Source of the DNA: Escherichia coli
GTDB taxonomy: Bacteria > Pseudomonadota > Gammaproteobacteria > Enterobacterales > Enterobacteriaceae
NCBI RefSeq assembly: GCF_003334315.1
Contig: NZ_QOWR01000061.1
Length of the DNA stretch: 28,808 bases
Strand: one strand, 5' to 3'
Shown: positions 18,457 through 18,498 of the stretch, piece by piece
Layout of the letters: the number at the start of each line of letters is the position of its first letter
How positions within the stretch are numbered: position 1 is the first letter of the stretch
Translations under genes and position numbers: made by a program
The notes under the pieces: model-generated
Database searches by the model: none
What the model saw: the letters and a program-made list of their open reading frames with translations, nothing else
What the model was told of the DNA's origin: nothing

Positions 18457-18498
18457 AAAAAAAAACGACATATCAGGCTGCACGCCGGGTATGTCGTT
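18457..18498. terminator. Intergenic hairpin between yihS and yihR, with A9 tract on + strand (equals U9 tract after the hairpin on the minus strand)
   Basis: Stem ACGACAT(18465..18471)/ATGTCGT(18491..18497) with extendable pairs; A-run 18457..18465. Canonical terminator geometry only on the minus strand; weak on the + strand. Confidence 0.45.

Follow-up and report, generated by a model that had tools for sequence, protein, structure and literature searches.

A conserved intercistronic stem-loop between yihS and yihR of Escherichia coli with canonical terminator geometry on the antisense strand

The yihS–yihR junction

The stretch of DNA analysed here (the window, 28,808 nucleotides) is the yih region of Escherichia coli, which is devoted to sulfoquinovose catabolism. 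Its plus strand is the sense strand for yihU, yihT, yihS, yihR, yihQ, yihP, yihO and ompL, in this order, and the features discussed in this article are collected in Table 1. The genes yihS and yihR are separated by a spacer of 68 nt that reads, from the stop codon of the former to the start codon of the latter, TAG, CTGACT, A9, CGACATATC, A, GGC, TGCAC, GCC, G, GGTATGTCGTT, ATTCAATAAAGGTACCTCGT and ATG. The yihR start codon follows the end of the hairpin after only 21 nt, which leaves no space for a yihR promoter. The Shine-Dalgarno sequence (SD) lies 2–12 nt past the hairpin in the junctions that were read by eye.

Table 1. Features of the yihS–yihR region, in window coordinates unless stated otherwise
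Feature	Position	Strand	Basis or remark
yihS, sulfoquinovose isomerase CDS	17209..18450; stop TAG 18448-18450	+	ORF list; RefSeq annotation of identical sequence in strains RCAD0514 and NT1N34
A9 tract	18457..18465	+ (U9 on minus-strand RNA, directly after the hairpin)	Length-polymorphic (A7/A8/A9) in E. coli
Stem-loop	18464..18498	both	Folding, inverted repeat, homologues in 20 junctions
yihR start annotated in K-12	18491-18493; K-12 4070399-4070401 (L089 3900-3902)		
Sense tail TTATTCAAT	18497..18505	+	U-rich but interrupted
yihR Shine-Dalgarno AAGG and start ATG	18507-18510 and 18519-18521	+	
yihR, sulfoquinovose mutarotase / aldose-1-epimerase CDS	18519..19421	+	ORFs, RefSeq annotation
yihR–yihQ spacer, AT-rich (30% GC), 198 nt	19422..19619	both	Candidate source of divergent antisense transcription
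yihQ	19620-21656	+	ORFs, RefSeq annotation of identical sequence
yihN, nearest minus-strand gene to the right of the hairpin	~25384-26649	-	
Repeat region of the K-12 allele	NC_000913.3 4070402-4070514 (L089 3903-4015; L001 452-588)		

The basal stem of the hairpin (18464–18474 paired with 18488–18498) is AT-rich and is joined through an internal loop to a small apical helix, in which GGC (18476–18478) pairs with GCC (18484–18486) and closes a loop at 18479–18483. Folded as a 42-nt segment, the plus-strand RNA reaches -19.2 kcal/mol (z = -6.5) and the minus-strand RNA -15.8 kcal/mol (z = -4.6), and for either strand none of 200 shuffled sequences folded as well. As the sequence-only reading had described, the stem-loop is preceded by A9 on the sense strand and hence followed by U9 on the minus strand. 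This tract is the sole A/T homopolymer of nine or more nucleotides in the window.

A consensus terminator scan called the hairpin on the minus strand only, where U9 abuts nine contiguous basal pairs, so that a stable stem-loop is followed by at least six U within 0–2 nt of the stem. On the plus strand, at the end of yihUTS, the stem-loop is likewise present and an uninterrupted U-tract is not. Scored with a d'Aubenton-Carafa-type discriminant of hairpin and tail (modern folding energies applied to a 1990 calibration, with a zero threshold that is probably too strict, as almost no other terminators were found in the window), the minus strand obtains d = +26.3 with a T-score of 5.64, whereas the plus strand obtains d = -18.4 with a T-score of 2.62, below the threshold for a canonical terminator. 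The sense tail UUAUUCAAU does carry U at four of its first five positions; the earlier claim of terminator geometry on the antisense strand only is therefore upheld for canonical geometry, and weak termination of sense transcripts may still occur. With both strands of the 28.8-kb window scanned, this hairpin is the only strong terminator site; of 200 dinucleotide-shuffled versions of the window, 7 contained an equally good one. A second positive site (d = 0.7) lies on the minus strand at 22189–22151, antisense within yihP, and consists of a 39-nt hairpin (-18.6 kcal/mol) followed by TTTTTGG.

The element resembles intrinsic terminators in that a stable stem-loop abuts a U-run (U9, minus strand), and the A-tract on its opposite side recalls bidirectional terminators. 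It differs from the usual intrinsic terminator in that its canonical orientation faces a strand without annotated gene for 6.9 kb, the distance to yihN, in agreement with the several kb noted before. Further differences are a sense score below threshold in every relative and a basal stem rich in AT, combined with an internal loop and a small apical helix. A scan of positions 17000–20000 against Rfam 15 (E ≤ 10) returned two sub-threshold eukaryotic chance hits, both outside the hairpin. A regulator motif was rejected, since the 9-mer ACGRCATAT with at most one mismatch occurs 13 times in the window against 12.8 expected by chance. We also rejected REP/BIME and other repeat families as identities, as the element has a median of one place per genome in 1669 E. 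coli genomes. The hairpin is an unannotated element of a known kind, terminator-like on the antisense strand and similar to stabilising hairpins on the sense strand.

Conservation and the strand under selection

Related junctions were sampled from one genome per species with YihS, together with twelve loci retrieved through YihR homologues. The same hairpin was found in 20 distinct yihS–yihR junctions, which belong to E. coli, E. albertii, E. whittamii, Salmonella enterica (including diarizonae), several Citrobacter, Superficieibacter, Mangrovibacter and metagenomes. YihR is 68–100% identical across these 20 loci and the flanks are unalignable, while the 9-bp basal stem ACGGCATAT/ATATGCCGT is near-invariant. 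The arms stand 11–22 nt apart, and the sequence between them is variable and usually contains a small helix of its own. In many other Enterobacterales of the sample yihS and yihR almost abut, or yihR is absent, and no hairpin was found; the hairpin tracks E. coli-type YihR. Outside Escherichia, at the loci for which the downstream gene was retrieved, a TauE/SafE gene follows E. coli-type yihR.

Partial matches to the element occur elsewhere. In Vibrio sp. UBA2441 (L050 3774-3785) the 12-mer AATACGGCATAT, equal to the consensus 5' flank plus the left arm, is found ~30 nt past the stop codon of a yihS-like gene; the right arm is absent and a separate canonical terminator follows, so the 12-mer may be a remnant or a coincidence. 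In the window, the exact ancestral arm 9-mer (ATATGCCGT / ACGGCATAT) also occurs within coding sequences, at 16970-16978 in yihT and at 26979-26987 and 27041-27049 in yihM, and exact matches number five against an estimated ~0.4 expected. The yihT copy is present at the same position in many genera and is presumably kept by codon constraint.

The ancestral 5' flank of the hairpin is A-rich, of the form AAAA(A/T)A, and is kept in most lineages, and the tails are typically TTGTTT in the sense and TATTTTYAG in the antisense orientation. The sense score (d+) is below zero in all 20 variants. The antisense score (d-) exceeds zero in three, namely E. coli A9, E. coli A7 and the metagenomic locus L098 (A6, d- = +25.7), which represent two independent lineages; at three of 20 variants, the antisense terminator geometry is not conserved among relatives. 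Across the family the mean T-score is ~2.6 on the plus strand and ~2.8 on the minus strand, with no significant difference between strands (p = 0.52), and the plus-strand fold is the more stable in 12 of the 20 variants (Wilcoxon p = 0.07). The SD of C. sedlakii (L095) and that of locus L101 abut the hairpin, and a sense U-tract is absent from both. Since, in addition, d+ is sub-threshold in every variant, termination of sense transcripts is not a universal role of the element, for which stabilisation or processing is a putative function. With a zero threshold that is probably too strict, weak termination may nevertheless occur in either direction.

A one-sided transition in a palindromic stem leaves a G·U pair in one RNA and an A·C in the other. 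Nine basal pairs were compared in 15 distinct sequences, which gives 135 cells. On the plus strand 134 of these pair (99.3%), ten of them as G·U, and one is unpaired, whereas on the minus strand 125 pair (92.6%), one as G·U, and ten are unpaired. Compensatory double changes occur at two pairs, and one pair can be followed from G-C in Salmonella, Citrobacter and E. albertii through G·U in E. whittamii and E. coli ECOCN22 to A-U in the window and K-12. Counted by lineage from the alignment, at least eight independent events created G·U against one that created A·C (one-sided binomial ~0.02). Judged from this comparison, the structure under selection is the sense RNA, because the intermediates are G·U on the plus strand and A·C on the minus strand. 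The stem thus evolves through G·U intermediates as terminator stems do; in the latter, 89.5% of intermediates on the transcribed strand are G·U and 10.5% A·C (PMC5381666). The pair-type asymmetry is more informative here than folding energies or T-tract scores, neither of which is decisive.

The asymmetry also bears on whether the palindrome acts as DNA, that is, as an operator (of CsqR or another regulator), a cruciform or a recombination site, and not as an RNA element. The high conservation of the arm sequence itself, beyond pairing, would suit such a role, as would an insertion breakpoint inside the loop in E. coli RMDEC465. However, the excess of G·U over A·C is an RNA signature, the element is single-copy in the genome, and arms that stand 11–22 nt apart, commonly with a stem between them, are incompatible with a fixed dimeric operator. 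We therefore consider a DNA-level function extremely improbable. A DeoR-type CsqR operator in particular was rejected, as the half-sites lack a fixed spacing.

Alleles in E. coli and transcription across the junction

The junction is present in 4001 of 5426 complete E. coli genomes, and the others presumably contain the short yihTUVW cassette of PMC12608037. Junction-bearing genomes fall into three alleles, with either a short spacer containing an A-run, a short spacer containing GAAATAA instead of the run, or the K-12 type. The A-run allele (A7–A9) accounts for ~28% of junction-bearing genomes. It comprises 437 genomes that match the query at 99% or more, with A9 and A8 among the sampled examples, and 682 that match at 95–99%. 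The sampled matches of the latter band include O157:H7, A7 was read in one of its genomes only (strain 132, L085), and ST131 was placed in it from the 401-bp search (97.0%). The GAAATAA allele is found in ~550 genomes and the K-12 type in 2248 (~56%). The antisense-terminator geometry is a minority state in E. coli. In the 1669 E. coli genomes in which copies were counted, the hairpin is single-copy.

Several strains show rearrangements around the junction. Some E. coli with the identical A9 spacer, such as NT1N34 (L103 11458-12333), carry a gene for a TauE/SafE sulfite exporter between yihR and yihQ. The window and K-12 have the 198-nt spacer of 30% GC in its place, which may be the scar of a deletion and may now contain the promoter region of yihQ. 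Strain RCAD0514 (L102) matches the 401-bp query (window 18300-18700) at 100%. It has an IS1 directly after yihR, where the window has yihQ, none of the genes from yihQ to ompL is annotated, and yihU is frameshifted; to judge from these sequences, decay of the yih cassette is under way in part of the A9 lineage. E. coli RMDEC465 (NZ_CM177019.1, L088 480-660) lacks yihS. Foreign DNA, which carries the gene of a MerR-family regulator further upstream, meets the junction precisely within the loop of the hairpin (…CACC|GGGTATGTCGTT), so that the 3' arm is all that is left of the hairpin before yihR. The hairpin may be a breakpoint or an insertion target.

In the K-12 type, a ~70-nt G-rich repeat lies between the A-rich tract and the hairpin, whereby the antisense U-tract is lost: what comes after the hairpin in the antisense direction is AAACCCAAAAA. 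In K-12 the apex of the hairpin has become a perfect helix of 7 bp (-19.1 kcal/mol). The repeat is the HPG1/HPGQ G-quadruplex-hairpin element, listed for yihR/yihS and proposed to act in a terminator-like manner between the genes of one operon (Kaplan et al. 2016, PMC5100583). Although it shares the spacer with the hairpin, it is a separate repeat that occurs in several copies (median of four places per genome), and the window lacks it. The yihR/yihS spacer gives gSELEX peaks with several holoenzymes, as does the pstB/pstA spacer (PMC5493296), and RNA polymerase band-shifts the K-12 yihS–yihR spacer (PMC5816610). As both spacers carry HPG1, polymerase binding is probably a property of the repeat. 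The K-12 annotation of yihR (NP_418315.3, 308 aa) starts at an ATG within the 3' arm of the hairpin. In the window this ATG precedes the one at 18519 by 28 nt and is out of frame with it, and PGAP uses the ATG at 18519, which is preceded by an SD (300 aa); the K-12 yihR start is probably eight codons too long.

Published data from K-12 describe sense transcription through the cluster. On sulfoquinovose, reads per kb are 192 for yihU, 336 for yihT, 467 for yihS, 156 for yihR, 338 for yihQ, 150 for yihP and 113 for yihO (computed here from the raw counts of PMC12608037 Table S3, which are low, and gene lengths). Expression thus steps down ~3-fold from yihS to yihR in both replicates and then rises at yihQ, in an allele that also carries HPGQ, so that the drop need not be due to the hairpin. 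Sulfoquinovose induces yihR more than 30-fold together with yihS (PMC12608037), and on lactose yihR and yihQ are uncoupled from yihT/yihS (PMC5816610).

These data bear on the proposal, made from the sequence, that the hairpin is a bidirectional terminator insulating yihUTS from yihR–yihQ. In its full form the proposal holds that both the sense transcripts of yihUTS and antisense transcripts end efficiently at the hairpin and that yihR–yihQ is an independent unit. It would account for the layout of A-tract, hairpin and U-rich tract, each flank being moderately T-rich in its own orientation, for the uncoupling of yihR/yihQ from yihTS on lactose, and for the binding of RNA polymerase to the spacer; the very high conservation of the stem fits a constraint on both strands (PMC5381666). 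However, the polymerase binding falls on the HPGQ repeat, absent from the window strain, and the induction of yihR with yihS on sulfoquinovose implies read-through. The sense score is sub-threshold in every variant, the 21 nt between hairpin and ATG offer no room for a yihR promoter, and a G·U to A·C ratio of 10:1 speaks against an equal constraint on two strands. Moreover, the sense U-tract is weak, and the flanking genes are co-directional members of one catabolic cluster, unlike the convergent genes that bidirectional terminators separate. Antisense geometry is thus what stands of the proposal, and a strong sense side is not supported; we regard a true bidirectional insulator as improbable.

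For K-12, antisense transcription of the junction is on record. At 4070730(+), on the strand opposite yihS and ~215 nt past the yihS stop codon, lies a region of Rho termination with 61 reads upstream and 43 downstream without bicyclomycin, against 79 and 188 with the drug (Adams 2021, PMC7815308 supp. 2), and a similar antisense Rho entry exists at ompL (4063846) (PMC7815308). In K-12, antisense transcripts thus traverse the yihS–yihR junction until Rho stops them inside yihS, and low-level antisense transcription runs through the silent yih cluster of this strain. The Term-seq tables of Adams 2021 contain no K-12 3' end at 40694xx-40706xx. K-12 lacks the U-tract, and with a cluster that is silent in LB and in glucose media no end is expected at this junction. 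The TERMITe supplements hold no yih entries.

The hairpin could accordingly be a dedicated antisense terminator whose A-run growth was selected, blocking antisense or pervasive transcription before it reaches yihS, yihT and yihU and replacing the Rho stop of K-12. It would meet the same problem in the same place as the Rho-dependent suppression in K-12 (PMC7815308), an antisense RNA running from yihR into yihS. Unlike the Rho stop, a stop at A9 would be factor-independent and would act ~215–300 nt earlier, at the spacer. The transcripts might originate by divergent firing at the AT-rich yihQ promoter region, or at promoters within the genes from yihR to ompL. The strongest canonical terminator signal of the window, on the minus strand, agrees with this role, as do the need for Rho to stop the K-12 transcript, the minus-strand promoter-like matches in the yihR–yihQ spacer of 30% GC, the widespread A-rich 5' flank, and the high antisense score of L098, which acquired its A6 independently. 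Against it, the geometry is present in just three of the 20 variants and in ~28% of junction-bearing E. coli genomes, the A7/A8/A9 polymorphism resembles neutral slippage, stem changes detrimental to the antisense hairpin alone are tolerated, the majority allele breaks the arrangement at no obvious cost, and the promoter-like matches occur at chance level. The suggestion of a terminator against antisense transcription is consequently borne out in geometry, in physical competence and in the existence of antisense transcription in K-12, but not in conservation, and we hold selection for this function to be unlikely.

Any antisense transcript that ends at the hairpin would cover the yihR CDS, and it had also been suggested that an unannotated antisense RNA has its 3' end at the hairpin. 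As a discrete RNA that ends at hairpin and U9 and regulates yihR, it could be ~1 kb long and start in the yihR–yihQ spacer, or ~100 nt long and start inside the 5' region of yihR. The terminator geometry fits, K-12 has antisense coverage upstream of 4070730, and promoter-like hexamers are found on the minus strand at 19505->19478 and 19442->19415, with a GATAAT at ~18575-18570. The hexamer matches nevertheless occur at chance frequency, and GATAAT is a by-product of codons, the reverse complement of Asp-Tyr, which reads GTAATC in relatives. An antisense promoter was rejected on these grounds, as consensus matches were at chance level and none was conserved. Furthermore, the element has no Rfam match, no minus-strand ORF of at least 60 aa lies under yihR, Term-seq reports no 3' end here in K-12, and most alleles lack the terminator. 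A discrete antisense RNA therefore finds little in its favour, and we consider it very unlikely.

Role of the stem-loop in yih expression

On balance we lean towards a conserved intercistronic stem-loop in the sense yih mRNA that acts as a weak attenuator, as a 3'-end stabiliser or as both, and whose antisense competence is derived. Stem-loops between cistrons can stabilise mRNA, as do the REP elements of malE–malF and hairpins in the puf and pap operons. The yihS–yihR hairpin is like these elements in its position in the spacer of a polycistronic cluster, its weak sense U-tract, the step-down downstream of it (K-12 counts) and the conservation of its sense RNA, and is unlike REP/BIME in being single-copy. 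Placed directly after yihS, it would mark the step-down in expression between yihUTS and yihR, which could come about through weak partial intrinsic termination, through protection of the 3' end of the upstream mRNA from exonucleases, or through both, and read-through past the hairpin would supply yihR. It is this attenuating or stabilising mechanism that we infer for the hairpin, together with actual termination of antisense transcripts at U9.

The antisense geometry would have arisen secondarily. The hairpin has an ancestral A-rich tract on its 5' and a U-rich tract on its 3' side, and in one E. coli lineage (the window, O157:H7, ST131) the A-tract grew to A7–A9, probably by replication slippage. 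As the stem is a near-perfect palindrome, growth of the A-run gives the minus-strand transcript a 9-bp basal stem followed by U7–U9, which should form a physically competent Rho-independent terminator against polymerases that traverse yihR in the antisense direction. The restriction of the antisense geometry to two lineages, the length polymorphism of the A-run, the tolerance of antisense-weakening substitutions and the common repeat-disrupted allele speak for a neutral by-product. An adaptive reading of the A-run is kept alive by the conserved A-rich flank and by the second, independent A6 lineage, and the conserved 5' flank may indicate some selection for an antisense U-tract, that is, for a truly bidirectional element.

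A more far-reaching version of the adaptive reading is that, in A7–A9 E. coli, the hairpin has been co-opted to terminate a ~1-kb antisense transcript that starts in the yihR–yihQ spacer and covers yihR, and that the alternative alleles tune the expression of yihR and yihS. We hold this to be a doubtful proposition with small chances of being correct. If true, the natural junction alleles would provide an intrinsic antisense stop, a Rho-dependent stop and a repeat-disrupted state.

The current understanding of termination is unchanged by these observations, and their use lies in annotation and in engineering or measuring yih expression. K-12 is unrepresentative of the yihS–yihR spacer, both through its repeat insertion and through an annotated yihR start inside the hairpin arm. 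The asymmetry between G·U and A·C can reveal which strand of a palindromic element is selected, and this junction is a clean natural example; it also illustrates how homopolymer slippage beside a palindromic hairpin can create a canonical terminator on the opposite strand. For the yih cluster itself, the yihS–yihR spacer is a conserved RNA-structured boundary that refines the map of the operon.
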